Shown in pieces: positions 15,980 to 37,513 of a stretch of 64,000 nt of DNA. The notes under the pieces are model-generated. The model was not told the origin of the DNA. It was given only the letters and a program-made list of their open reading frames with translations, and did not search any database. The position numbers and the translations under genes were made by a program. Source of the stretch: Eledone cirrhosa (taxonomy: Eukaryota); NCBI GenBank assembly GCA_964016885.1, contig OZ024752.1:12214001-12278000 (forward strand), read 5' to 3'. Within the stretch, counting starts at the first letter, position 1. Each line of letters starts with the position of its first letter.

Positions 15980-16898
15980 AAGTGTCTTGCTCAAGGACAT
16001 AACACATCTCTCAGTCTGGGAATCGAACTCACTACCTCACGACTGTGAATCCAATTCCTTAACAACTAAGCTATGTCCCTTCACTTTATTAATATATTAA
16101 TACACTTGTACCTACATACCGTACGTCCGACCATGTGTGTCACGCTTTCAGTAATATAAATAAAAATCGAATGACGTCCGTGAGACATGCTAAAACAATG
16201 GAAGTGGGGTGGTAAACAATCTACGAAAATCAAAGAGCGTTGCAATGTTTGGAAAGGAGAGAGAGAGGGGGGGGGGGGTTATAATATATTTAGAGAGAGG
16301 GGGGTTATAATATAGAGAAAGGGATGGGTTATTATATATATATATAGATAGGGGGTTATACTATATATAGAGAGGGGTTTATAATATAGAGAAATGGGTG
16401 GGTTATAATATATAGAGAGAGGGGGGTTATAATATAGAGAGAGGCGGTTATAATATAGAGAAAGGAGGGTTAAAATATATATATAGAGAGGGGGTTAAAT
16501 ATATATGTAGGGAGAGGGGTGTTATAATATATAGAGAGGGTGGTTTTAATAGAGAAAGGGATGGGTTTATATATAGAGAGAGAGGGTTTTAATATATTTA
16601 GAAAGAGGGGGTTATAATATAGGGAGAGGGATTATCTGTGAATTTTTTTCACGGGTCCAGCTAGTTAATATAAATATTGTAAATGAAGATGATGTTATGA
16701 TTTTGGACACATTTAAGGAGGTCAGTATTTCTCTACCTACACCCATACTATTTGCAATAATTGTAATGCGTCAAACTAGACTAAATATTTTGTCTCCAGC
16801 TGATATTATGACACGATATTCCAGAAGAGTTCCAAAACATTTTAAACCAAGTCTAGTGCACCCCTTCCCAGGTGTCAGAACACAGCCGGTCTCTCACG
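15980..16898 (+). pseudogene. Inverted duplicate of villin exon 11 with flanking intron (source ~35800-36192); splice acceptor deleted, interrupted by an insertion at ~16097-16664
   Basis: 16688-16839 is the reverse complement of 35895-36046 with 4 mismatches in 152 nt; upstream SINE flank and downstream flank also align. Confidence 0.9.
16097..16664 (+). mobile_element. Probable non-autonomous Helitron-like insertion with internal (agagagggggttataatat)-type minisatellite
   Basis: Absent from the paralogous region near 36075; ends ...cacgggtccagCTAG|t. Confidence 0.55.
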
Positions 16899-17056
16899 AT
16901 TAAGTCACACACATTCGCTTTTGTAATCTTTTGAAATCTTATACCCCAGTCATACATTACATGAATAAACAGTTGTTGGTTTATTATTATATATTACAGA
17001 TAGATTCAAAAAGATTATCAACAAGGAATACTCTCAATTCTGTAATAATTACTTAC

Positions 17057-17128
17057 GTCACGGACAAAAGCAATGCCAGCATTCTCTCGATCTAATTCCT
17101 GTTTAGCCTCCTCATATGATTTTGTTTT
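17057..17128 (-). CDS. VIL1: villin-like exon 14 (G6-headpiece linker): KTKSYEEAKQELDRENAGIAFVRD
   Basis: ttgtag|AAA acceptor, GAC|gtaagt donor, 72 nt; KSYEE.K.EL typical of the villin post-G6 segment. Confidence 0.9.
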
Positions 17129-17159
17129 CTACAAGAATAAAGAAAATGATATATATATA

Positions 17160-17705
17160 TATATTTTGAGTATATGTTGGTTGTATACCAACACCTCAGT
17201 ATGCAGATTGGAGCACTCGACGAAGTGCGCAGGTTGGTTTGGTTACTCCGGAGTAATGTAAAATAAAATAAAATAAATAAGTCAAATGTTTAAAATTTAG
17301 CTTCGTTTACTACTGCTATCTATATTTTGGTGACAGCCATCTTTGGTTGTAACCTCTTCAGGCAGTCCGAATTAGTGTGGTATAGACAAGTACATATGTT
17401 GTTGAGGTGTATAATTTTGTCAATACTCTGATATGTCCAGTTCCTGGTTGGGTTGTTATTTCTCTGAGGAACTGGAATCATATCCATCTATGATTCCAGT
17501 TCCTCAGTGAAATAACAACCCGACCTGGAACTGGGCATATCAGAGTATTGACAAAATTATACACCTCAACAACATATGTACTTGTCTATACCATACTAAT
17601 TCGGACTGCCTGAAGAGGTCACAACCAAAGATGGCTGTCACCAAAATATAGATAGCAGTAGTAAACGAAGCTAAATTTTAAACATTTGACTTATTTATTT
17701 TATTT

Positions 17706-17712
<7 letters not shown>
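17160..17712. mobile_element. Fold-back element, 224-bp arms (17259-17482 / 17489-17712), carrying a G12A-mutated hammerhead in each arm, plus a ~95-nt one-sided tail
   Basis: Reverse-complement arms with a few mismatches; actgc-CTGAAGA-ggtcaca..tgtcacc-AAAA-tatagata-gcagt at 17605-17659. Confidence 0.8.
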
Positions 17713-17769
<57 letters not shown>

Positions 17770-17805
17770 GGAGTAGACATTACAATACAACAGGAGGAAA
17801 CATAT

Positions 17806-17857
17806 TAGTACCACTGATGATGTCACAGGGGTGTGATGAAAGAACTTTGATAGACTA
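17806..17857 (+). ncRNA. Degenerate minimal hammerhead motif
   Basis: tacca-CTGATGA-tgtcacaggggtgtgat-GAAAG-aa-CTT-tgata. Confidence 0.45.
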
Positions 17858-18492
17858 TATATATATTTATATCTATATTTGTAACCAATTACCAGCTGAA
17901 TTAACTATAGGGATATAAAATATACAGAAGCAAAAACCAATCCAAACCAAACAGTGAGTGTGTTTTATTATTATTATTTCTGGCAATATTATAACAATAT
18001 GACCCTCACTAAGTATAACAATATTTTGTTTCAACACAGGATTTCATATCAAAAACCTTGCAAAACACATATATACTGTATACAATATATTAATAAATGG
18101 AAACTATATTTATAAAACCATATTTATTTTATTATACATATTTCAAGGGCCACCAAGGCAAATTATGGTGCGCTTTCATCAGATAAAATACAGATTTGTT
18201 TTATAAATAAATATTGACATACCCGGAAAAAAAACAACCTTAACGGTTGGAGCTTATTAATGTATTGTGTATTTACTCCACTAAACTGTTGAGTGCTTTA
18301 TATCAGTTATAAACATTTTTAAGCTTGTTGAATCCCAACAAATTAAATATAACCTCTGCATATATACTGTATATATATATTGTGTGTGTAAATATATATA
18401 TATATATATATGAGTAGGCTTGGTTGTGCGCCTTCGTATGCGCGGGTATATGTATATGTGTATGTGTATATATAGGTGTGTATATATGTGTA

Positions 18493-18533
<41 letters not shown>

Positions 18534-19079
18534 ATATCTGTGGGTCCGTGTATGTGTACATGTGTGCATATATCTGTGTATGCATGTACCTATATATGAG
18601 GGTGTGAATATATGCATGTGTACGTGTATGCGCACGCGCGGGGGTGTGTGTGTGCTTGTCCGCACAGATAAGTGTGTGCTGAGGAGCTCGGAATGTCTGT
18701 GTGTGAACACACGTGTGTGTGGTTGTGTCTGTATCGGGCTACGAGCAAGCTAGGGACAGGCAAGGCAGATCAGAACCCCATGCCCACGTAGCAGTAATTC
18801 TGGCGACATAATTAAGGTGAGTGACAGTTCACACCTGAATGGAAATGGCCAGTGGGCAGTTTTGAATGGTCAAACATACAGATGACGTCTCATACACTTG
18901 ACCAATCGATGGGCCGTGCAAACAGGATGATGGCAGGTGAAAGAAATTCAAAGGGTCGGAGTACAACGGACAGGAGATTTGCTTCGAAGTCACTAAACGT
19001 ATCTGAGGAACTTGCGAATCCAGGGTCAGGTTCAATCCAGAAATAGATCACACCTCGAGCTGTTCGCAGGAGAAAGAGT

Positions 19080-19317
19080 GAGGAATAACATGGTCGGCTG
19101 TACAAAAAGAGTTTATTATAAAAAAACCCATAAACTTGGGAATAAAACGATACTGGCCAATAAATTCTGGCAACTTAAAGACATCAACCAGAAATATGAA
19201 ATTAGCTGGTTGAAGTTATTGAGTGCAAGGGCCTACAATAATGGAATGTCCCACTGTGGACTATGCAATATAGAGCTGCTCCATATTTTAATAAACTGTG
19301 TTTCGATGCATCACTGA
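19080..19317 (+). mobile_element. Degraded Penelope-like GIY-YIG endonuclease fragment
   Basis: T.LA..FW.LK....Y.I.W..L..AR.YN.G...C.LC..E, paralogous to 2357-2686. Confidence 0.7.
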
Positions 19318-19514
19318 TTCTTTGTTTTCCATATGATTATACTCTGCTCTGAAGGAGCATAGAGTGCTCAACCAGCATACCGCCTATGGAAGTATCCAAG
19401 CCACCTTACCACAAATATATATATATAGGCAAGTTATTCTGGATTGAATCATAGGTAACCACAGTAAGTAAGGTACTCAATACATAGCAGAGTATAAAAG
19501 TTTTAATATAGATG

Positions 19515-19565
19515 AGATTCTACAGGACTAGAACTGTTTCATTCTTTAGAAATCATCAGGAATCT
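19515..19565 (-). ncRNA. Minimal type I hammerhead motif (same family as 7560-7610), sense to villin pre-mRNA
   Basis: Reverse complement reads agattcCTGATGAtttctaaagaatGAAACagttctagtcctGTAgaatct. Confidence 0.72.
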
Positions 19566-19606
19566 GGCTTTCCAAAAATAAATGTAGTGGTATTTATATC
19601 TTTTCA

Positions 19607-19830
19607 GGAGGTACACTGAGATTACTTTATCTACCCACTTGTCAGCTAGTAGTATACCTACACCACCCATCCCATCGTCATTTCCCACCCAGAAAAATTT
19701 GTAGCACTGACTTTTTCCTACAAGGACTCTAGCAGACTCTCCTCTCCATCTAGTCTCTTGCACACAGCATACATCAATTCCTTTCGCTCTAGCATCTCTA
19801 CGATTTCTTCTGCTCTTCCTTTCATTGTAA
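19607..19830 (-). mobile_element. RTE LINE apurinic endonuclease fragment
   Basis: CVQETRWRG..AR....YKFFWVG...G.GGVGILLA.KWVDKVISV. Confidence 0.85.
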
Positions 19831-19863
19831 TATATATATATATATATAGTTTTAATATAGATG

Positions 19864-19914
19864 AGATTCTACAGGACTAGAACTGTTTCATTCTTTAGAA
19901 ATCATCAGGAATCT
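19864..19914 (-). ncRNA. Second tandem hammerhead copy, 349 nt from 19515-19565
   Basis: Identical motif; element continues to ~20330 and is homologous to 7190-7560. Confidence 0.72.
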
Positions 19915-20614
19915 GGCTTTCCAAAAATAAATGTAGTGGTATTTATATCTTTTCAGGTGGTAGGAGAGGGTGGGGAGTGGGATGGGTGGAGGTCATTGGT
20001 TGAAAGAAAAGGGAATTCATTAAAAGCTAATTCTTTAAGTTTATAGTTTATATTTAGAGTGACAAAGGCAGAAAGGATTATATAAACAGGTTCAGAATGT
20101 GGTGCCACTCCTTATTTTTAAGTTTCTCTTAAGCTAACAATGCCTATATTTCAGGTGTCTATAAGATGGTGGGGTCATGGTTGATGGATTTAAAGAAAAG
20201 AGAAATTCTTTAAAAGCTAATTCTTTAAAGCACTCCTTAGAGTGACAAAGGCCAAGAGAATTCTATAAACCAGTTCAAAATATTGGGTGCCTATCATTAT
20301 TGTCATGTTTCTCTTAAGCTACATTCCAGGTGTGAACTGACACATTCACATACATACACACACACACACACTTATATATATGTATGTATGTATGTGTATA
20401 TAAAGGCGGTGCCCCAGCATGGCCTCAGCCGGATGGCTGAAACAGGTAAAAGAGTAAAAGAGTAATATTAAAGTGTTAAACAATATTCAATGATTATGTC
20501 AAAGAATGAGTTTTACAGTAGATTGGAAGCACTCAACGGGAAAAATAATTTTCTGGAGTTATTAATATTAAAATATAAGTATTAATAAAATAGATGTTCT
20601 TTTGATCAATTACA

Positions 20615-20665
20615 TTTTATTATACATATTTCGGATGTACAACAGTACGTCCTCATCAGACAAAA
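20615..20665 (-). ncRNA. Minimal type I hammerhead motif (AUA triplet)
   Basis: Reverse complement: ttttgt-CTGATGA-ggacgtac tgtt gtacatcc-GAAAT-atgt-ATA-ataaaa. Confidence 0.7.
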
Positions 20666-20926
20666 TATAATGATACATGACATACCCTGAGATGTTAATA
20701 CACATATACACAGGCACAGAAAATGCAGATAGGTGAGAGGTACTTACATAACCATAGTGCCGTGTATATGTGTATATATATATATGCATATGTATGTGTG
20801 TATGTGTGTATATATATATATATATATATGCATATATATGTATGTGTGTATGTGTGTGTATGTATGTGTATATATGTATGTATATGTATATATATATATG
20901 TATATATATATGTATGTGTATGCATG

Positions 20927-21179: not shown

Positions 21180-21476
21180 GTAAATATCATCTTGGTTAAG
21201 AGAGTGGGACTGGCCTTGTGCAGTGCCTTTGTTCACTATAAAAGCTTCACGGCACAGGCATTGCTTTATATCTGGAGATCTCTTTGCACTTGTCGTCACA
21301 TGGTACCATGGGCCTAGCACTATGTGTCAATAATTGTCACAAGTGTAGTGTTTGTACCAGAGTTTTCAAGTCGCTGGCTGGACTAAAAAGTCACACTTGT
21401 TCAGCGCATGGGTAGGGGTTCTCCTACATGGATATAAAGTAGCGGCCGTACTCGAAAACGAGTTGGCAACCACCAT
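21180..21476 (+). mobile_element. RTE/BovB-like LINE 3' end fragment; inverted copy at 25838-26135
   Basis: C-terminal C2H2-like [17 protein letters not shown]; close reverse-complement match to 25838-26135. Confidence 0.65.
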
Positions 21477-21523
21477 ATATATATATATGTATGTATGTGT
21501 ATATATATATATATGTATATGTA

Positions 21524-21555
<32 letters not shown>

Positions 21556-21809
21556 CAAATATAATTCAGCGAGAATCGTATTTCGGCTGGTAGAAAAAGC
21601 GAAACGAAACACAAAATCGTAGAAATGCTGGCAAGCGCTCAATAGTTAAAAATCTAGAGCTATACAATAAGTTAAAACGCCATACAAACTTAAAAAGTGG
21701 TTAAGAAGGTATTAACTACATAACCTCACAAAAAAATCAAGCTAAACAGGTCAAATAAAATAATTGTTTCTACTTTAGGCACAAGGCCAGCAATTACCCA
21801 GTGCATATG

Positions 21810-24546
21810 TGAAATAGGACATAGGGTGTGGTGGAATGGAGAGCAAAGGTATATTATGAGTAGGGTGTTTCTTGAAAACTATAGTTCTGGGTGACAAATC
21901 CTACAAAGCAGCTTTGTATGTGTTTAATCATGAGTAGGCAGGTGACTATTTCAGCCAGTAACAGATTTAAAGATATTTTACTCAACGCCTACGACAGTAA
22001 AGAAGAACAGATAGAGACATTCAATGTAGAAGAGAACTGGGAGTTCCTAAAAAATAACTTACTAGAGGCGACGGATGAGATCTGTGGCTGGAGTAAGACC
22101 ACAAGCAGGAGGAGAGTGACTTGGTGGTGGAACAATAAGGTAGGTGAGGCAGTTAAGGCCAAGAGACAGGCATGGAAAGAATGGAAGAACGGGGGAAGCA
22201 GGGTACATTACATAGAGACCAAGAGGGAAGCTAGGCGACAAGTATACTTAGCTAGGAGGGAAGCAGAGGATAGAAAATTCAAGCATGTTTTGCAATGTGA
22301 GGACCAGAAACAGGAGGTGTTCAAGATTGCGAGGCAGTGTCAGAGAGAATTCTGATGTCATTGGAGAGAAGTGTATCCGGAATTATAAAAGTGAGCTTGC
22401 CCTCACAAGTGCTGACCAGAAAGATGCATGGAAGAGCCATTATGATAGATTACTAAATGAGGAGAATGCATGGGAAGAAGAGACCCTACCCCGAATAGAC
22501 CCTATAGAGGGGCCAGCAGTACAAGTCAGCAGCAGCGTAGTAAGTAAGGCAATCAAAGATATGAAGATGAGGAAGGCAACCGGTCCATCGGGTATAACTG
22601 CCGAGATGCTGATGGCATCTGGGTCTGTAGGTCACACTATAACCACACGTATTGTTAACCAGGTAATACTAGAAGGTGTCATACCAAAAGATTGGTGCAG
22701 TAGCATCATTGTCAACTGCTACAAAGGTAAAGGAGATACACTAGATAGAGGAAACTATAGAGGTATAAATCTGAAGGATCAGGTCATGAAAGTAACAGAA
22801 AGAGTTATAGCACAGTTGTTTAGGGACCGGGTGAAACTAGATGAGATGCAATTTGGGTTTGTACCAGGAAGAGGCACCACTGATGCCCTCTTCCTTGTGA
22901 GGCAGTTACAGGAAAAGTACCTAGCTAAAAGTAAGCCACTCTACCTGGAATTCGTCGATCTCGAGAAAGCCTTTGACAGAGTTCCACGTGCTATAATCTG
23001 GTGGGCTCTTAGAAAACTAGGAGTAGATGAATGGCTTGTGAAAGCTGTACAAGCCATTTATAGGGGAGCAGTCAGCAAAGTTAGGATTAGCAATGAGTAT
23101 AGCGAGGAATTTAGCGTACAGGTTGGGGTCCACCAGGGCTCTCTTCTTAGCCCTCTCCTGTTCATCATAGTCCTGCAGGCAATAACGGAGGAGTTTAAGA
23201 CCGGATGCCCATGGGAACTCCTGTATGCAGATGACCTTGCAATTATAGCTGAATCTATGGTAGAGCTAGAGAAGAAATTCCAAACTTGGCAGCAGGGACT
23301 AGAGAGAAAGGGTCTCAAAGTCAACATGACAAAGACTAAGGTCCTTGTAAGTAGACGAGAAAACAGAACCCAGATCCCCTCAGGGAAATGGCCTTGCTCA
23401 GTATGTAGGAAAGGTGTAGGTAGGAACTCCATTCTCTGCCCCAAATGCAAACAATGGGTACACAAGAGATGTAGCGGGATCTCAGGAAGCTTAATTAAGA
23501 ATTAGGCTTCACATGTAGCAGCTGTACTGGGACAGCAAGCAGCAAACAGCCACAGGAAACAAGTACCACCAATCTCTGGGAGGGCTCTTTAGAAACAGTA
23601 GACAGCTTCTGCTACCTAGGTGACCGAATTAGCAGCGGAGGTGGGTGTTCAGAAAGTACAATAACTAGGGTAAGAACGGGATGGAAGAAGTTCAGGGAAC
23701 GACTGCCACTGCTAGCTGCAAAAGGCTTCTCCCTCAAAATGAAAGGCAGACTGTATGATGCGTGTATCCAAACAGCAATGTTACATGGTAGTGTGACCTG
23801 GGCGCTGAAGGTGGAAGACTTACGTAGATTAGAAAGAAACGAAGCCTGCATGCTCCGATGGATGTGTAATAGTAATATACGCGAACGGCAAAGCATAAAT
23901 GAATTGAGAGAGAGAGAGTGAGCATAAGAGGAATCAAATGCTGTGTGCAGGAGAGGCGGTTGCGTTGGTATGGACATGTGATGCCTATGAAGGATGGCAG
24001 CTGCATAAAAAGGTGAAGAGCACTAGAAGTCAATGGAAACCGCGGAGTGGGGAGACCCAAGAAGACCTGGGATGAGGTGATAAAAGCCGACCTTACCCAA
24101 TTACACCTCTCAAAGGCGATGACACACGACCGTGACCTCTGGCGTCACACAGTAATACAGAGTACCCGACCTCCCATGGGTACAAGCTGAAGCCTATAGA
24201 CAATATGCCCCCACACCCTCCCACTGTAAAGTGGTCGTGGAGGTGCCACGACAAAAAAGCACCCAGCCCACACTGTAAAATGGACGTGTAGGCGCCACGG
24301 AAAAAAGCACCCAGCACTCACTGTAAATGAGGTTGGTGTTAGGAAGGGCATCCAGCTGTAGACATCAAGCCAGAACCAGTTCCTGTATGAGCAAGTTGTA
24401 CGCATAGTCACCTGCATACTCGTGATTAAACAAACACATACAAAGCTGCTTTGTAGGACTGTCACCCAGAACTATAGTTTTCAAGTAACACCCTACTCAT
24501 AATATACCTTTGCTCGCCATCCCACCCCACCCTATGTCCTATTTCA
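21810..24546. repeat. ~140-bp inverted repeats (21810-21949 / 24404-24546) bracketing the RTE body
   Basis: tgaaataggacatagggtg...ggtgactat versus atagtcacc...ccctatgtcctatttca. Confidence 0.85.
21950..24400 (+). mobile_element. 5'-truncated RTE-clade LINE (RT with inserted PHD-like Cys finger), frameshifted, with 3' UTR
   Basis: ORFs 21891-22355 and 22285-23505: WWWN, NYRGI, QFGFVPGRGTTDA, FVDLEKAFDRVP, GVHQGS.LSPLLF, LLYADD, CSVC..C.KC..WVH.RC; later RLRWYGHV and GRP.KTW. Confidence 0.93.
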
Positions 24547-24761
24547 ATTCATTTTATAGTAACGAGGTTATGTAAGTACTCTTTGTTAACTTAACCTTCT
24601 TCTTGGCTCTCTGAAGCTCGTCTCTAGCTCCATACTGTCTCTATATCCAGTTTCTCAAACAGCTGTCTGATCTCCTCAGTGTTTGCAACCAGCCCAACAT
24701 ATATACACATATATACACACATATATATACACATATACAAAATACATAAACACATACACAA

Positions 24762-24792
<31 letters not shown>

Positions 24793-24819
24793 AAGAGAGA
24801 GAGAGACATATATATATAT

Positions 24820-25256
24820 AGTAAAAAACAGAGAGGCAGTACGAACAAAGGTTTATTAGTTTCACTCTCTTGAGAGTGGGGTTGTGGTGGGGAACGACGC
24901 TTCGGGCATAAGCCCTTCTTCAGGTGAAAAGTGTGCGGGAAGAGAGTTCCAAGGGTGTGTAGGGGAGTGGTGGAGAGACATATAGAAAAAAGGGGGGTGA
25001 GAAGAAACAGTACAAATGAAATTAAATATAAAAGCATGATAAAAATAAAAATAAATATGAAGTAAAACAGGTGGTGGAAGGGTGTGGGGCGTGTAGGGGT
25101 TGTGGCGGGTGGAGTGGGGAGAGGGAGGCGGGGTGTCCGAGCGGGGAGGGCTGAAGGTGGTGTGTGTGTGTAGGTGTACGTGTGTGTGTGTGTGTGTATG
25201 TGAAAGTAAGAGTTGGGGGAAGAACGGGGTTGCATGTTCAGGAAGAGGTGTGTGTT
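24820..25256 (-). mobile_element. Second copy of the 280-870 repeat (Penelope-like tail)
   Basis: Reverse-complement similarity to 370-860, including CTGAAGA-agggcttatgccc-GAAGCGTC. Confidence 0.55.
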
Positions 25257-25413
25257 TATACATATATACAGGAAGAGGTGTGTGTTTATATATATATACA
25301 CATACATATATACACATACAAATATACATACAAATATACATATACACACACATATATATATATATATAGTGACGAAACATAAGTCAATTGCATGAACTCA
25401 TAATCCTTTATTT

Positions 25414-25469
25414 ACTGCTATATATATTTCGATGAAAGCCATTGACTGGCTATGACCTCATCAGGCAGT
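25414..25469 (-). ncRNA. Minimal type I hammerhead motif (AUA triplet, palindromic loop 3)
   Basis: Reverse complement: actgc-CTGATGA-ggtcatagccagtcaatggctttcatc-GAAAT-atat-ATA-gcagt. Confidence 0.7.
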
Positions 25470-25655
25470 TAGTCAGTTCTTAGATATGCCAGCTCTGTGT
25501 GTATAGTGTTGATGGTATCAGAGCCTTGGGACATATATATATATATATATATATTCATATACACACATATATATACACATATATATATACACATACACAT
25601 GCATATATACATATATATATATATAATATATATACACTTATATACACATACATAT

Positions 25656-25686
<31 letters not shown>

Positions 25687-25799
25687 ACGGAAGAAATGTG
25701 GTAAGGAACCAGGTGGACCATAACGCACCAAAGTACTCAATACTTAGGGTAGTAGAGTGGGTAATAGGAACGAGTAGCACCCTAGGGGTGCTACTCGTT

Positions 25800-25804
<5 letters not shown>
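25687..25804. mobile_element. Miniature fold-back insertion (19-bp arms at 25764-25804 plus ~77-nt tail) in (TA)n
   Basis: ataggaacgagtagcaccc-tag-gggtgctactcgttcctat; tail shares gtactcaatac with the 6711 family. Confidence 0.7.
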
Positions 25805-25840
<36 letters not shown>

Positions 25841-26463
25841 GGTGGCTGCCAACTCGTTTTCGAGTATGGCCACTACTTTATATCCATGTAGGAGAACTCC
25901 TACCGATGCGCTGAACGAATGTGACTTTAGTCCAGCCAGCGACTTGAAAACTCTGGTACAAACACTACACTTGTGACAATTATTGACCCATAGTGCTGGG
26001 CCCATGGTACCATGTGACGACAAGTGCAGAGAGATCTCCAGATATAAAGCAATGCCTCTGCCGTGAAGCTTTTATAGTGAGCAAAGGCACTGCACAAAGC
26101 CAGTCCCACTCTCTTAACCAAGATGATATTTACCAAAAAGAAGAACAAGTCAACATCATTGGATACCATCAGAGTTGCAGGTGTTATATCAGAGTTTTCC
26201 TTCTCCTAGAATTCTGCCTTGACAAAGGCTAAGGGGTCATCTCTCCCGGTGATTTTGGATGGCCATTGACTCTTAAGAGCTCCTTTGCCCTTTGACAGGT
26301 TTTGTTTTTAGTCCTGCAGGATGTCCAAAGTCACCCTCCTCACCAAGAAACCTTAGTGGGGTTGCCAGTTTAGTCGCCAACGACCCGACCATGGGACAGG
26401 TTGTACTGGAATACATGTTACCAGTAGCACCAAGTGGTGACCTGACATAATATATGCATATAT

Positions 26464-26893: not shown

Positions 26894-29388
26894 ATTCATT
26901 AGTTAAGCAAAACAAGACCACAAATTTCACAAGGAAGACATTATTAAAAGAGATTAGAAATTGTGGGTAGTTTATAGTTAAGTGCTAATTTTTAATGTTT
27001 TTAATTGAGAGACAATGTAGGGGAGGTAACTTATAATTATCTAAGTTAGTTATAGCTATTTAACTTATTAGCTACAAGTAAAAATGGGGCTAAATGACTA
27101 TGTTGGGTCAAATATTCTATTGGCGATGTTGACAGCTAATAGTTACCTCCATTTTATCGTTAATCGGTAGAGGTCGGGATAGAGTTATGTAATATGCTTC
27201 GGTAATACAGAGATCACAAGATTTTCTTCGTTCATTGAACGGTTGGACCCTAGCCACGATATCCCATTTTAGTGAGTGTTCAATGTTGCTTAATTTAAAG
27301 TTTTAATGAGCCTAGCTAGAGATCTCGAACATCTGTTGCTAGGGTCTCGGAAGGAAAAAGAGTGCGCGTTATAGCGTACCTTAAAAGTGTTAGAGGTAGA
27401 CCCGATATAAGAGCTGGTATTCGAAGCAGTTTTAGCCGTGCACCTATAGACTATGTTGGGTGTCAGGCAGTGTCCATTTAATGGGCATGCATTAGGGTAA
27501 CGGCAGTTGCAGTTGCTTCTGCGATTAGTGAGAGTAGGGTAGTTTAACCTAAGCGGTTGGTCAGTGCTAGAAGGATTAGATGGGCGAGGTGTGCTACTAG
27601 AGTAATTATTGGTGTAGTGGCGTGGTGTATTTGATAGAGGTAGTGGTACCGCGGTGTGGGAGTTATACTGTCTTAGTTTATGATGGTTACTGAATGCGAT
27701 GTGGCTAGCTAGGTTAGGTGTTGTGGAGAATGAGATTTTAATGTTATTTTTATTAAAGAGTTTGTAATATCTATGGTTGGGGGGGGGGTGTTTAGATAGG
27801 ATAGAGAAGAAGCGTTTAGGGATATTAGTGGCTAGATTAGATGAGAATGGGGGGGGGGGGGGTTAAGCCAGGTGATATTTCTAGGTCTATTCCTTCTAGG
27901 GGTTCTAGTGGAGTTGGTAGGGGCCTTCCTAGGGTTATTATTACCTGGGGATTTGTTATTTGTCATCCCATTTTTCATTCCTATTCTAGGGTTGATTTTT
28001 AGTTTGCTACTTGGAGTGGGGAGCAGGCCGCTGCCACCATTAAACTTCCCTGTATAGGTGCTGTTACTGCTAAAATTCCGGCGAATCTGGCTATATGCTA
28101 AGGTATTTCTAGTTCTAGTGTTAAGTTTATTATGGTGAATTGCTGTGTTATGGCATTTAGGTATGTAGTAAATTGATTGTTCATAACCAGATTCAGAAAG
28201 AGCCTTATCATAATATTGTGCATGGTTTATAAATATCTCCTCATTTGCTGATAGCATGGAGATCCTATTCGAGATAGATTTAATTACTGCTCTGATGACT
28301 GCCGGTGGGTGGTTAGAGTGTGGGCTAATATATGTGAGTATTTCACCTGGTTTATGGAAAGGATAATATAGGTTATTGTTGAGATCCAGGTTGACGTCTA
28401 GGAAGTTTACTAATTTATGGTTCGGCTCGATGGTGATAGAGAGGCCGTTATTTTTAAAGAATCTATGTAATTGTTTTTTTAGCAAATCAATGCCCCGATT
28501 AGTGCAATTGTGGACTGCAAATAGGGCGTCGTCCCTGTATATTCCGCCTTGCAAGGGTTGGATTTCGGCTCTGATGTTATGTAATAGGTAAATTCCAACT
28601 AAATCGGTGATTTGCGCAGAGTCACTTGAGCCCATCGTGATGTCAAAGTTGTCTGTTCTATCTTTTCTAGTCCAGAGTGCTCCGTTGAATTCAATGATAG
28701 TCTGCCTAGCCATAAGTATGATGTTAATCTCATTATTGGTTATGTCCGAGTTGGTGCTGGCTAGGGTTAATGCTTTGTTGAGCAGTTCCGGGGTTATTGA
28801 AGCGTAATAGCTGTCGATGTCAAATTGGATGAACCTCATAGATTGCTTGGACCTTAGATCGGAGAACCATCTAATGACTTGGTCGGTGTTGGACCACAAC
28901 TTGTAGATGATATCATCCCGTAGCCCAGGGATTATCCTATCAAGGATGTTCTTACTGATACGACCCAGGTCGGATGTGGTTGGGCTTATAAGTCTAATAG
29001 ATGGGTTCTCTATAAAGTTTGGCTTATGATCCTTGAGAGAGAACCTTGTTGGTACATAAGGGTGGGTAAATCTATCCAGATGCAAGTCCTTAACCAAAGC
29101 CTGGGCTTTTCGGTTAAGTACGTTTACACTGGAGGGTATAGTTTTTTTTATAGTTTTTATTAAGTTCCTTAAGAAGGAAAGAGTTGTAAGTTTCAGGAGT
29201 CATGGTGTATAGATTTTTAGTTTTGTCAGACATAACATGTAAGAGTTGGCTATCTTTACTTGTAGCTAATAAGTTAAATAGCTATAACTAACTTAGATAA
29301 TTATAAGTTACCTCCCCTACATTGTCTCTCAATTAAAAAATTTAAAAATTAGCACTTAACTATAAACTACCCACAATTTCTAATCTCT
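26894..29388 (-). mobile_element. Penelope-like retroelement, 5'-truncated: RT (ORF 27832-29097) plus GIY-YIG (~27120-27520), with an inverted copy of its 3' UTR at the 5' end
   Basis: DKTKNLY, FIQFDIDSYY, TMGS, YRDD, VNFLDV, SNHPP; downstream CNCR..CPL.G.C...NIVY..YIGST..FKVRYNAH..SF and CDLCITE; 26950-27082 inverted at 29255-29388. Confidence 0.93.
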
Positions 29389-30488
29389 CGAGGAGTTACT
29401 TCCCCTGAAACCACCCTCTAATTAGTAAGGTAAATATGTCCTTTGGCAGCCATCTTGTTACCCATAGGCAGATCTCACACAATGCAGCCTCGACAGATGA
29501 ATACTGCTTGATTATGGCTGACAACTGATACAACCAGGACACCATAGTGAAATACCAATATATGGAACATTACATTATGTAACATTCTCTCCTTATTTTA
29601 ATTTATATTCCTTTGAAGTTCCGATGCGCCGCTCTGTTTTTAAATATGTTAATTATTTTCAACTGAACCAGATCAATAATGATATATAGACATCTGATCC
29701 AGAAATATTATGGAGTAGCGAAACAATTGTAAACGGACATTATAATTATTATGGCAGTATCGGTAGGGGGTCAGACGCCATGCTTTCCAGCATAGTTACG
29801 TCCCTTTACGATCTGAGTTCAAATCCCGCCGAGGTTGACTTTGCCTTTCATCCTTACGGGGTCGATAAAATAAAGTACCAGTAATGCACTGGGTAATTTG
29901 CTGGCCTTGTGCCTAAAGTAGAAACAATTATTATTAATATTATTATTATTATTCTCTACATTCCTTACATCAAACTAAAATATGTTGACAATCTTTTAAT
30001 AATGTCTTCCTTGTGAAATTTGTGGTCTTGTTTTGCTTAACTAATGAATCTTTCCAGCTCTGCGCGCCTAACTTCTGCATGAACCCAGCCACCTAGCTGC
30101 TTTCTACTGCATGTTGCACATTGAGCACATGCCTTTACGCTTTGGCTTCTAACTAATTCACCAATCTCTCCTCTCCTATCTCCTCTCCTATCTCCATCTC
30201 TCTCTTTAAGATTGGTTACTCTTGAACTGTGTGACGTATTATCTTCGTTTTTTCCGTTCATTGCCAGAGAACGTCTCTATGAACCACCTAAGAGAACATT
30301 AGTCTACGACTTCTTTTATACCATAGTGTAATTGTTTTTCACCGCTCCTATTAATGACGTATTATATTCGTTTTTTCCCGTTCTTTGCCAGGGAACGTTT
30401 CCACGAACCAAAGTATCATCTTCCTGTCTTCCTCCGGTTGCAACGTTTTTTTAAATATCCACTTCTGCGTTTACAGATTGACTTTGTT

Positions 30489-32951: not shown

Positions 32952-33077
32952 TGCCCAACGTTTGGGATCCCAGTCAACAAAACAACCCCTGAATTTGAAG
33001 GGCTCTGCTCCTTGCTTTACTTGAACAATCAGTGTGGTATCGACAGTTCTACCAGATGGATCTGTTTTAATGTAATC
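32952..33077 (-). CDS. VIL1: villin-like exon 13 (G6 end): DYIKTDPSGRTVDTTLIVQVKQGAEPFKFRGCFVDWDPKRWA
   Basis: ctgaag|GAT acceptor, GCA|gtaagt donor, 126 nt; YI.TDPS.R..VKQG.EP..F.G.F..WD motif. Confidence 0.95.
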
Positions 33078-34881: not shown

Positions 34882-34947
34882 CATGGCTGTGTCCAAAGAT
34901 TCACACTTTTCTTCTTCATTTGCTCCTTTACCAATCCAGACGTATAT
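34882..34947 (-). CDS. VIL1: villin-like exon 12: IYVWIGKGANEEEKCESLDTAM
   Basis: tttcag|ATA acceptor, ATG|gttggt donor, 66 nt; VWIG..A..EEK motif. Confidence 0.94.
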
Positions 34948-36013
34948 CTGAAAGGATAAAATTGATAACCATAAAATTATCATCAATATCATCATCAGCA
35001 GCAGCATGATCTTTGTCTCTGTCGCCACCATCACCTTCATCACTGTCATCACTGTCATCATCATCATTAGTTAACGTCTATTTCTCATGCTTGCATAGAT
35101 TAGATAAGTTGTCACATTATGTGGCTGGAACGGTCAGGTGACCATATCTTTACAGCAGGTATTGGGAGCATTTTATCATGGCACTGTCGCAACCTCATTA
35201 TAGGGTTGATTGTATTATTTTTCTCATCACACCAGTACGACCAACTTTTGTTATGGACTGGGTGCTTTTTTTCATTGAAATACCAGCACAATTGCCTTAC
35301 AAGGGTGAACTGGGTATTTTTTGTCATGGCACCAGTAGAACCATCTGACAGGGCAAGCAGGGTGATTTTTTGCTGACAGCAGCAATACTACTGTACAGTG
35401 TGGACTGGATTGGGTATTTTTGACGGAGCGCCAGCATTGTGGGAGAGTACTTGGAAAGCATATCTGGCTTTACATGTATGCATGGATTGGATAGGAAAGG
35501 TGTTTCAAGGGTTTGGAGGCAAGAGCACATTCACATAGTCGATATCTAGTTTCCCCATGCCTACCTGAGCCAGGTGGGCTGTCACACTCTGTGACTAGGT
35601 AGGGCAGGAGACCATGTCTTGTTCATACATTCCATTCTTGTTTTGGCTTGGTCTTCTTGCCTAGATGAACTTCGTTGTCCCAACCAAGCATTTTGTCATC
35701 ATACAAAATCGGGTGTGTACAGCCTTTAATGTTAGCATGGGATGGCTGGCGGAGCATCCATCTTTGTATATTTGTATGGATTGGGCTGGGCTAAAAGGAG
35801 TGAAGAGATTAGCTGTGTTCTGACCTGGAGAGGGGTGGGCTATACTTGGTTTAAAATGGCCATGACTTATGTATGTCAGGAACTGTTCTAAAACTGTTTT
35901 GGAACTCTTCTGGAATATCGTGTCATAATATCAGCTGGAGACAAATTATTTAGTCTAGATTGCCACATTACAATTATTGCAAATAGTATGGGTGTAGGTA
36001 GAGAAATACTGAC

Positions 36014-36058
36014 CTCCTTAAATGTGTCCAAAATCATAACATCATCGTCATAAAGATC
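36014..36058 (-). CDS. VIL1: villin-like exon 11 (45 nt, G6): DLYDDDVMILDTFKE
   Basis: tttcag|GAT acceptor, GAG|gtcagt donor; DL..DDVM.LD motif. Confidence 0.94.
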
Positions 36059-36192
36059 CTGAAATTTACAATAGTTATATTAATAAAGTGAAGGTGCGTG
36101 GCTTAGTTGTTAGAGAATTGGCTTCACAATTGTGAGGTTGTGCGTTCGATTCTCATGTCGGGCAATGCGGTATGTCTTTGAGCAAGACACTT

Positions 36193-36440
36193 AATGATAA
36201 TGAAATTATTGTGTACAGTGCTCAGGTGCACTACAACTTGTCAAAGGTGCATGTATAGTACGTAGAATTATGTACAAATGTCAGGAAAGTGAACAGTGTA
36301 TGAGTCATGATATACATGCGTGCGTGTGTATGGAGGGGGGATATCAGGTATAGTGTTGGCGAATTTCAGGAAGCATGGAAGTGTTAAAGGATGCAATGTC
36401 TCGACAGCTAACAACTGATGCAGGTAGTTTGTTCCATGTG
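36193..36440 (-). mobile_element. CR1-type LINE 3' end fragment
   Basis: Reverse frame WNKLPASVVSC, followed by UTR and short (TTA/TCA) tail. Confidence 0.6.
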
Positions 36441-37513
36441 GAAACATTGTTTCGATGATCCGATTAGACAAGTTCCACCCCACTCGGTAAGGGAGTGAGA
36501 TCTGGTATCTTGTTGATTGATTCGATCAATTTAATAAAAACTGCAATTGAAATTAGTTTCACACTTAGGCATCCTGCATCTCATAAAACCACATTCACAA
36601 GTCATTCTTTGAAAGTATAAAACAGTATCGTGACTATTTCTTGTTAAAAATGAACGTTTTTACTATAATTTTGCAAATTTTCATATCAATCCGTCCATTA
36701 TAACAAAATTTATAACATTTGAACAAAAAAAAAAAAATTGTTTTTATATACTTTCTACTAAATATTCGTAAAACCACATTAGCAAGACATTCTTGAAAAC
36801 TACAAAACAGCTTTATGACTTTTTTGTTTGTTGCACTTGTACCAGGCCCATTGTGCTCTTGTGGCTAATAAAAAATATTATTTGGCAGAGTACTGGACAA
36901 AATGACTTGTAGTATTTTTTAAAGCTCCTTATGTTCTGAGTTCAAATCCCACCAAGTTTTACTTTGCCTTGCATCCTTCTGATGTCAATAAAATAAGATA
37001 CCAGTCAAATACTGGTGTGTTGATATAATCAATGTTCCTCACCCCCAAAATTACTGACATGTACTACAATGATAGCACAAATAGTAGCAACTATAATAAT
37101 TGCTTCTACTTTTGGCACAAGGCCAGCAATTACCCTAGTGGATTACTGGTACTTTATTTTACTGACCCGATAATAATTGTTTCTACTTTTGGCTCATGGC
37201 CAGCAATTACGCCAGTGTATTACTGGTACTTTATTTTACTGACCCCGTAATAATTGTTTCTTCTTTTGGCTCAAGGCCAGCAATTACCCCAGTGTATTAC
37301 TGGTACTTTATTTTATCGACCACCCTGTAAAGATGAAAGACAAAGCTAACTTCAGCGGGATTTGAACTCAGAACGTAAAGGGCCATAACTCTATGCTGCA
37401 AAGCATGGCATCTAACGCCCTACTGTTGCCCTTTAGCAACAATATTAACAATACATTTGCAGCAAATGCAGCAGAAATATTCAGTATCAATATAATTGAA
37501 AAAAGACTTGTTT

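Follow-up and report, generated by a model that had tools for sequence, protein, structure and literature searches.

An intron of the villin/advillin gene of Eledone cirrhosa contains an inverted copy of part of an exon of the same gene, and this copy is a real feature of the genome. It looks unusual, and its origin is probably ordinary and neutral. The structure of its flanks leads us to regard it, with moderate confidence, as a young, neutral, SINE-primed inverted templated insertion made during DNA repair. The evidence for selective maintenance largely dissolves, and little sign of it is left. The analysis covers a window of 64,000 nt (contig OZ024752.1 of assembly GCA_964016885.1, positions 12,214,001–12,278,000, forward strand). 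Positions are given in window coordinates, exons are numbered by their order in the window, and the features are collected in Table 1.

Anatomy of the inverted copy

The sequence-only reading of this stretch had described an antisense copy of a villin exon and its 5' splice site within the same pre-mRNA. Direct comparison, BLAST and short-read contigs bear out the match: the core of the copy and the donor segment are reverse complements that differ by four mismatches in 152 nt, with 81 nt perfectly matched, and BLAST extends the match to 16,683–16,843 against 36,051–35,891 (96.3% over 161 nt, E = 4e-72). The position and orientation are likewise as described, since the copy is located in the 1,395-nt intron that follows exon 14 of the same villin/advillin gene (between 17,057 and 15,661), and hence lies antisense inside the pre-mRNA, three exons downstream of its target at a distance of 19,056 nt. 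The copy lacks a 14-nt segment with the acceptor AG and the first nine exon bases, and a second deletion has removed 38 intron nucleotides; both deletions sit at 2-nt microhomologies. The lost acceptor agrees with the earlier description, as does the insertion of about 570 bp, which measures 576 nt. In total, about 270 nt of sequence from the villin gene itself make up the inverted duplicate. On the plus strand, the copy is crossed by a 108-codon frame, which belongs to a set of 325 stop-to-stop frames.

The core is not a dispersed repeat. With 40 of 195 candidates scored, three full matches were found in the genome, namely the donor, the copy and a third copy at C12:12,154,080-240. This last one is part of a large inverted duplicate at a distance of 76 kb, and its core is identical to that of the window copy. 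A contig from short-read run X2 covers the left junction and the core (16,640–16,839) with 0 differences, and the right junction (16,810–17,136) is contained in contigs of both X1 and X2, again with 0 differences. In one X1 contig, the left junction of the copy occurs together with the donor's base at each of the four differing sites. This is most simply a collapsed assembly bubble, since the copy's four bases are present in X2, a run of the same sample, and in both assembled copies. X1 and X2 are two runs of one sample, maybe of the assembled individual, and so speak for a real sequence rather than one fixed in the species. Among RAD reads of other individuals, six in X4 and one in X5 fall on the stretch; depth arithmetic suggests that two X4 reads span the copy's left junction, too few to count.

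Table 1. Positions of the inverted copy, its donor and the associated features in the window
Feature	Position	Strand	Remarks
Core of the copy, spanning the final 33 exon nt, the GT donor and 119 intron nt	16688..16839	+	Antisense in villin pre-mRNA; sequence match and short-read contigs
Piece of the upstream intron included in the copy, with the junction of the 14-nt deletion that removed the acceptor; GAA versus donor GAC	16665..16687	+	
Donor segment matched by the core	35895..36046	-	
Target villin/advillin exon (11th in window, gelsolin repeat 6), DLYDDDVMILDTFKE	36014..36058	-	45 nt, AG/GT, phase 0
Window exon 12, acceptor of possible exon 12–14 circle	34882..34947	-	
Window exon 13	32952..33077	-	
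Window exon 14; its donor 217 nt from the copy's core	17057..17128	-	
Window exon 15	15575..15661	-	
Last coding exon (villin headpiece)	13810..13923	-	
Recipient SINE (long form)	15833..16084		Head end joins donor sequence; left junction within 16,060-16,088
Donor SINE (long form)	36088..36521		Interrupted by another repeat at ~36,196-36,438; own 8-nt direct repeat at 36,080-36,087 / 36,531-36,538
Non-autonomous element, Helitron-like; the family begins with TC, ends with CTAG and has a minisatellite in its centre	16089..16664	+	Likely inserted after the copy arose
Co-duplicated old dispersed-repeat fragment behind 38-nt deletion; right junction	16838..16894	+	7 copy-only substitutions and 2-nt insertion
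Donor repeat fragment	35804..35858	-	0-1 changes since duplication
Block with exons 14–16 and the copy, inverted repeat at G000:C12 ~12,150,112-12,165,645	5283..20781		6 SNPs in 11,245 unmasked nt

The host gene

The host gene consists of six gelsolin repeats and a headpiece: its exons tile the O. sinensis advillin with its six gelsolin stretches and VHP, and the villin headpiece exon was also found directly in the window. The tblastn matches to the O. sinensis protein tile the minus strand between ~90.9 kb and 13.8 kb, where the headpiece exon lies. By motif scan a further coding piece was located at ~107 kb (window coordinates), and the product of one exon is 83–90% identical to octopod advillins. 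Window exons 10–16 have AG acceptors and exons 10–15 have GT donors. The target had been called exon 11; it is the 11th in the window, but at least ten more coding pieces lie beyond the window, which makes it the 21st of the gene or a later one.

The target exon encodes an acidic pair, whose calcium role and equivalence to gelsolin Asp669/Asp670 we assume. In gelsolin, these two residues are described as contributing to the locking of G2 to G6 (PMC6628662), and given that role the pair would matter to the octopod protein. At 16,687, the copy codon GAA (Glu) is the state of the three other octopod proteins covering the site, whereas the donor has GAC (Asp). The copy, not the donor, agrees with other octopods at this one base, which fits an older duplication better. 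Two further observations concern the 3' end of the gene. At 13,882, the headpiece exon encodes Ile where its twin copy, O. sinensis and Argonauta have Met, and a 600-nt (CAT)n-rich repeat (13,160–13,800) lies directly behind the villin stop codon, in the 3' UTR.

The left flank: two SINEs

The main argument for an old duplication with a maintained core had been that a SINE flank, ~81% identical, was duplicated together with the 97% identical core. The identity value holds (97 of 120 positions in BLAST), but positions 16,089–16,096 are the start of the inserted element and not SINE. The two SINEs were polarised with 56 family members, 28 retrieved with each SINE as query; L093 was left out because it occupies the same place as L064. 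In the first part of the SINE, donor and copy differ in 23 of 106 columns (11 donor-only, 11 copy-only and one changed in both) and share three non-majority states, none of them rare; 189 of 1,540 unrelated family pairs share as many. The donor SINE resumes past the inserted repeat, where 25 of 77 columns differ and two common states are shared (nine long-form members), the polarising of this long-form part resting on 9–10 members only. Overall, the pair is ~74–78% identical, with 48 of 183 columns different and five shared non-majority states, none rare; the shared 16,068A is the long-form majority (7/10), and 16,017T occurs in five of ten long forms.

No homology between the far flanks of donor and copy was found past the SINE tail (P = 0.61 against 3,000 windows). 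An 8-nt direct repeat is complete around the donor SINE, with its near half only at the copy. In the target-site test, for which 43 of the 56 members were usable, recognisable direct repeats were present in 6 of 24 assessable family SINEs and in 3.7% of 1,008 cross-pairs; the repeat of the donor is therefore informative, and its absence at the copy weakly so. Few and common shared states, unrelated far flanks and a target-site duplication that is complete only at the donor make it very likely that the intron-14 SINE is a separate insertion, joined by its head end to donor sequence, and not a co-duplicated flank. With 48 differing columns, no rare shared states and unrelated far flanks, the supposed co-duplication very likely fails, and the identity contrast between SINE flank and core falls with it. 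The SINEs behave as independent insertions, an outcome that the sequence-only reading had itself named as one that would remove this contrast. The left junction carries a chimeric repeat, with the body and far flank of one SINE and the near flank of the other, as in templated insertions. CpG decay was ruled out as the source of the SINE contrast, most differences being non-CpG. The SINE family (L061-L118) has a short and a long form, with ~40 extra nt before a GATC-type tail, and its members mostly adjoin (TA)n or (CA)n runs.

The right flank: a co-duplicated repeat fragment

On the other side, BLAST aligns the right flank (16,838–16,894) to 35,858–35,804 with 82% identity over 57 nt. It was polarised with 29 family members retrieved with a third repeat copy as query, which avoids donor-query bias; L121 was excluded as a near-duplicate and columns 16,895–16,898 as beyond homology. 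Donor and copy share seven states, six of them rare, compared with at most four in random pairs (406 pairs), which shows that this flank was truly copied. The changes since duplication number seven substitutions and a 2-nt insertion on the copy, and one, ambiguous, on the donor. At the donor-side rate of the SINE, 6–7 changes would be expected on the donor-side right flank, where 0–1 are present (P = 0.0007–0.013); the 7:1 asymmetry taken alone is weak (two-sided p = 0.07; 0.008 if 8:0). With 0–1 donor changes against 7–8 on the copy, the flank differences are not clock-like.

The burst of 7/55 on the copy side exceeds a young neutral rate (P = 1e-5 at 1.3%, 0.02 at 5%) and calls for error-prone synthesis, which is here an assumption. 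Errors clustered near the right junction together with two microhomology deletions again correspond to what is seen in templated insertions. A quasi-palindrome (fold-back) cause of the copy-side mutations was considered and rejected: three of the changed sites are linked by an 8-nt inverted repeat, but random substitution sets did as well in 69 of 400 cases, and 38% of such sets folded as stably. A second template for the mutated right flank gave no match longer than 12 nt in 264 kb, and no homology was found past the right junction.

The inserted element and the age of the core

The 576-nt inserted element, which we take to be Helitron-like from its ends, differs from the majority of 30 family members in 9 of 143 columns (by eye, four CpG, two common variants and three others). 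Its minimum age, based on three non-CpG changes in ~125 nt counted by eye, predicts ~6.5 core differences; four were found (P = 0.22). Unique sequence outside the core does not differ significantly from the core (2/27 versus 4/152, p = 0.22). With independent SINEs and a donor right flank changed at 0–1 positions since duplication, the notion of an old duplication whose core stays matched loses its footing. Whether the core is better kept than its flanks has a mixed answer: the SINE contrast is void, whereas the contrast with the right flank remains (4/152 versus 8/55 differences, p = 0.003), is one-sided and leaves some room for conversion or selection.

Predicted RNA pairing and its consequences

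As had been proposed, the two arms could pair very stably. The predicted duplex reaches −260 kcal/mol, whereas the two arms give −24 and −27 when each is folded on its own; the exon part of the duplex by itself gives −56. Among its five mismatches there are no A–C and one G–U, and none falls within the 33 paired exon bases. A–C mismatches or wobbles at target adenosines are a feature of selective editing sites, whereas near-perfect long duplexes lead to promiscuous rather than selective editing; the core duplex lacks the imperfect pairing, with A–C mismatches or wobbles at target adenosines, that marks a selective site. Editing of the paired exon could recode D>G, M>V, I>V, T>A, K>E/R and E>G. 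Inverted pairs of at least 100 nt are numerous in the gene, 40 being at least 90% and 10 at least 95% identical. Separately, a 460-nt near-perfect palindrome (96%) at 17,256–17,715, 128 nt from the exon 14 acceptor, is a much closer dsRNA candidate than the inverted exon copy.

The geometry allows the back-splicing that the sequence-only reading had suggested, and would also suit skipping of exons 12–14, because the arms flank these exons. The arms constitute a reverse-complementary match (RCM) of 123 nt and 96% identity, whose distances from the splice sites are 948 and 217 nt. Inverted matches near splice sites occur in 22 of 105 intron pairs, and this one ranks first by exactness and fifth by score. 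The candidate exon 12–14 circle would have 264 nt and a frame without a stop. RCMs are reported to favour both circles and exon skipping (PMC8330042). Skipping of the 45-nt target exon would be in frame, as had been stated, but this is not special, since exons 11–15 are every one phase 0 and a multiple of three in length. Unlike the transposon pairs that act as RCMs around circularised exons, the arm is unique sequence that also covers the donor site of the upstream exon, and the circle is a prediction only.

The copy resembles an editing complementary sequence (ECS) such as that of GluA2 Q/R in being intronic and complementary to an exon and its donor region within the same pre-mRNA. It differs in lying 19 kb and three exons away, in pairing over a long near-perfect rather than a short imperfect stretch, and in being known from sequence only. 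Pairing over tens of kilobases that could tune splicing recalls the ATE1 R2–R5 elements, which pair over 30 kb (PMC7797038); those elements are described there as conserved and mutation-tested, whereas the copy looks recent.

The two arms are predicted to pair in some transcripts, which would give low-level back-splicing or skipping and stray editing, not selected regulation. Detectable incidental editing or circularisation is possible, if rather doubtful, and a selected function of the pairing is unlikely. Some activity is favoured by the placement of the arms around exons 12–14 and by the short distance, ~600 nt, that would separate the exon from its partner after loss of introns 11–13. Still less likely is that a repair accident became a selected, splicing-gated antisense switch. 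With intron 11 present, the duplex would hide the exon donor and join the exon 14 donor to the exon 12 acceptor as a circle; with introns 11–13 gone, the 33 exon bases would pair with the copy 600 nt away and be recoded in the conserved DDVM.LD motif. Such a switch would mean that, in one octopod lineage, a copy of an exon had become the recoding ECS of that exon. If the duplex acts at all, even by accident, it would be a natural experiment on the origin of coleoid editing substrates or circRNAs, and would also bear on whether intron removal gates exon–intron pairing. Introns are largely ignored in coleoid work of this kind, according to one coleoid study (PMC8891338). A literature search that reached a minority of subscription papers yielded no paper on villin editing in a cephalopod, and villin was not found in the one PMC9068888 file (of three) and the one PMC8382921 supplement that were covered. 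A degenerate exon pattern had 0 matches in metagenome contigs.

Origin of the copy

The following course of events would account for the copy. A break in or beside the intron-14 SINE may have been repaired with a similar inverted SINE next to the exon, 20 kb off, as homology. Synthesis would then have copied the head of the SINE, the exon and the intron after it, with two slips at 2-nt microhomologies, and a cluster of errors would have arisen near its end, before the return to intron 14. The Helitron-like element would have inserted afterwards, and still later the whole 3' end of the gene would have been duplicated in inverted form. The SINE-primed template switching, the error-prone junctions and the order of events are what we infer here. 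On this account the core is 97% identical because it is young, and the SINE ~74–78% because it was never copied.

The surroundings of the locus, where near-identical inverted blocks form a mosaic, speak for an accident, and of random 285-nt pieces of the gene 8% contain at least 30 exon bases. For a young event, on the other hand, two deletions and one insertion in ~270 nt are a large number. The 13 nt next to the head end contain up to four SINE mismatches, leaving short homology at the switch point, which counts against SINE priming, and the Glu codon at 16,687 favours a somewhat older event with conversion. The features that the copy has in common with repeat-mediated template switching or templated insertion (Alu–Alu, MMBIR/FoSTeS) are deletions at microhomologies, one junction with a chimeric SINE, and another junction beside which SNVs are clustered together with an indel. 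Chimeric Alu junctions, and SNVs and indels beside replicative-repair junctions, are described in human (PMC6071635, PMC6902434). Unlike those human cases, the copy involves an invertebrate SINE, is a small inverted intragenic insertion and is deduced from a single genome, and its mutation cluster is heavier than in the human cases cited.

A distinctly less probable course is an older inverted duplication (~5–10% per lineage), its core later homogenised by gene conversion between the arms in a tract ending at the two deletions, with no RNA function. It gains from the exact coincidence of the core limits with the two deletions, the 81 nt of perfect match, the difference between core and right flank (p = 0.003) and the ancestral-looking Glu codon one base outside the tract, and a contig such as that of X1, with the copy's left junction and donor bases at the four sites, would be expected of a converted allele. 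However, equal change on both right flanks is predicted, and 7–8 versus 0–1 changes were found; had the SINE been copied, shared SINE mutations would also be expected, whereas the five shared non-majority states of the pair include no rare one, and the X1 contig is more simply the collapsed bubble, X2 and both assembled copies having the copy's bases. That exon reads overwrote a diverged paralogous stretch during assembly or polishing, or that a false join was made, is very improbable. A length of 152 nt comes close to that of a read, and near-identical duplicates abound in the region, but the X2 contig over 16,640–16,839 and the X1 and X2 contigs over 16,810–17,136 show 0 differences, and there is no N in 264 kb.

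We also regard as unlikely a selected long-range complementary element, in which the duplex is kept to regulate the exon by editing, by hiding the 5' splice site or through the exon 12–14 circle. The copy does cover the exon together with its donor site, the predicted duplex is stable (−260 kcal/mol; −56 for the exon part), the RCM is the most exact (96%) of the 22 intron pairs, among 105, with an inverted match near splice sites, the exon would be ~600 nt from its partner after removal of introns 11–13, and the residual contrast between core and right flank (p = 0.003) stands. The main age argument is gone, however, with the SINEs independent and the donor right flank nearly unchanged; the mismatches have no A–C or wobble bias, and a near-perfect long duplex is generally expected to edit promiscuously. 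Moreover, 119 of the 152 paired bases belong to an intron of 1,066 nt, the end of which is passed 18 kb before transcription reaches the copy, and the dsRNA potential is ordinary, this pair being one of the ten inverted pairs of at least 100 nt and at least 95% identity in the gene. Functional pairing over 30 kb does exist in ATE1 (PMC7797038), and coleoids recode heavily (PMC9068888, PMC8382921), 91% of robust recoding in squid being neural (PMC9068888). Against this, hyper-editing is rare in coding regions in an analysis that left octopus out (PMC5625713), and the 19 kb between the arms far exceeds the ~0.8–1.1 kb of edited human Alus, for which mean distances of 814–1,130 nt to the nearest inverted Alu are reported (PMC4365171).

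If the copy is the neutral templated insertion that we favour, it would be a neat invertebrate case of SINE priming, and a caution that a diverged repeat next to a duplicate need not date the duplicate.

Surrounding duplications and elements

From −95 kb to +20.8 kb, the locus is a gap-free mosaic of 96–99.7% identical blocks and is prone to inversions. The block with exons 14–16 has an inverted twin without upstream villin exons. Near-identical direct and inverted blocks are distributed over window 5,283–20,781 and G000:C12 ~12,118,000–12,214,000, with one block present three times in direct–inverted–direct order, and an orphan inverted copy of villin exons 14–16 forms part of this mosaic. 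The mosaic may represent either a recent real rearrangement or a false duplication; the contig depths (4.7 and 12.4 at the copy flank, 10.6 and 7.55 at the donor flank) are too noisy to judge a 15-kb duplicate. A 217-nt direct duplicate (96%) occurs at window 19,611–19,826 and G000:C12 ~12,325,724–12,325,939, 92 kb apart, and had no match in the outside loci compared.

Two further elements lie between the copy and the donor. At 26,894–30,049, nested inverted terminal pairs (58 nt at 100% and 137 nt at 98%) enclose a 455-codon stop-to-stop frame (27,832–29,199, minus strand) with no Pfam match; this element is possibly an undescribed DNA transposon. At 21,180–26,133, a 417-codon frame with a reverse transcriptase match and a weak PHD match lies inside nested inverted pairs of 295 nt (95%) and 144 nt (92%), and a 93% copy of this element is present at ~+109–111 kb.
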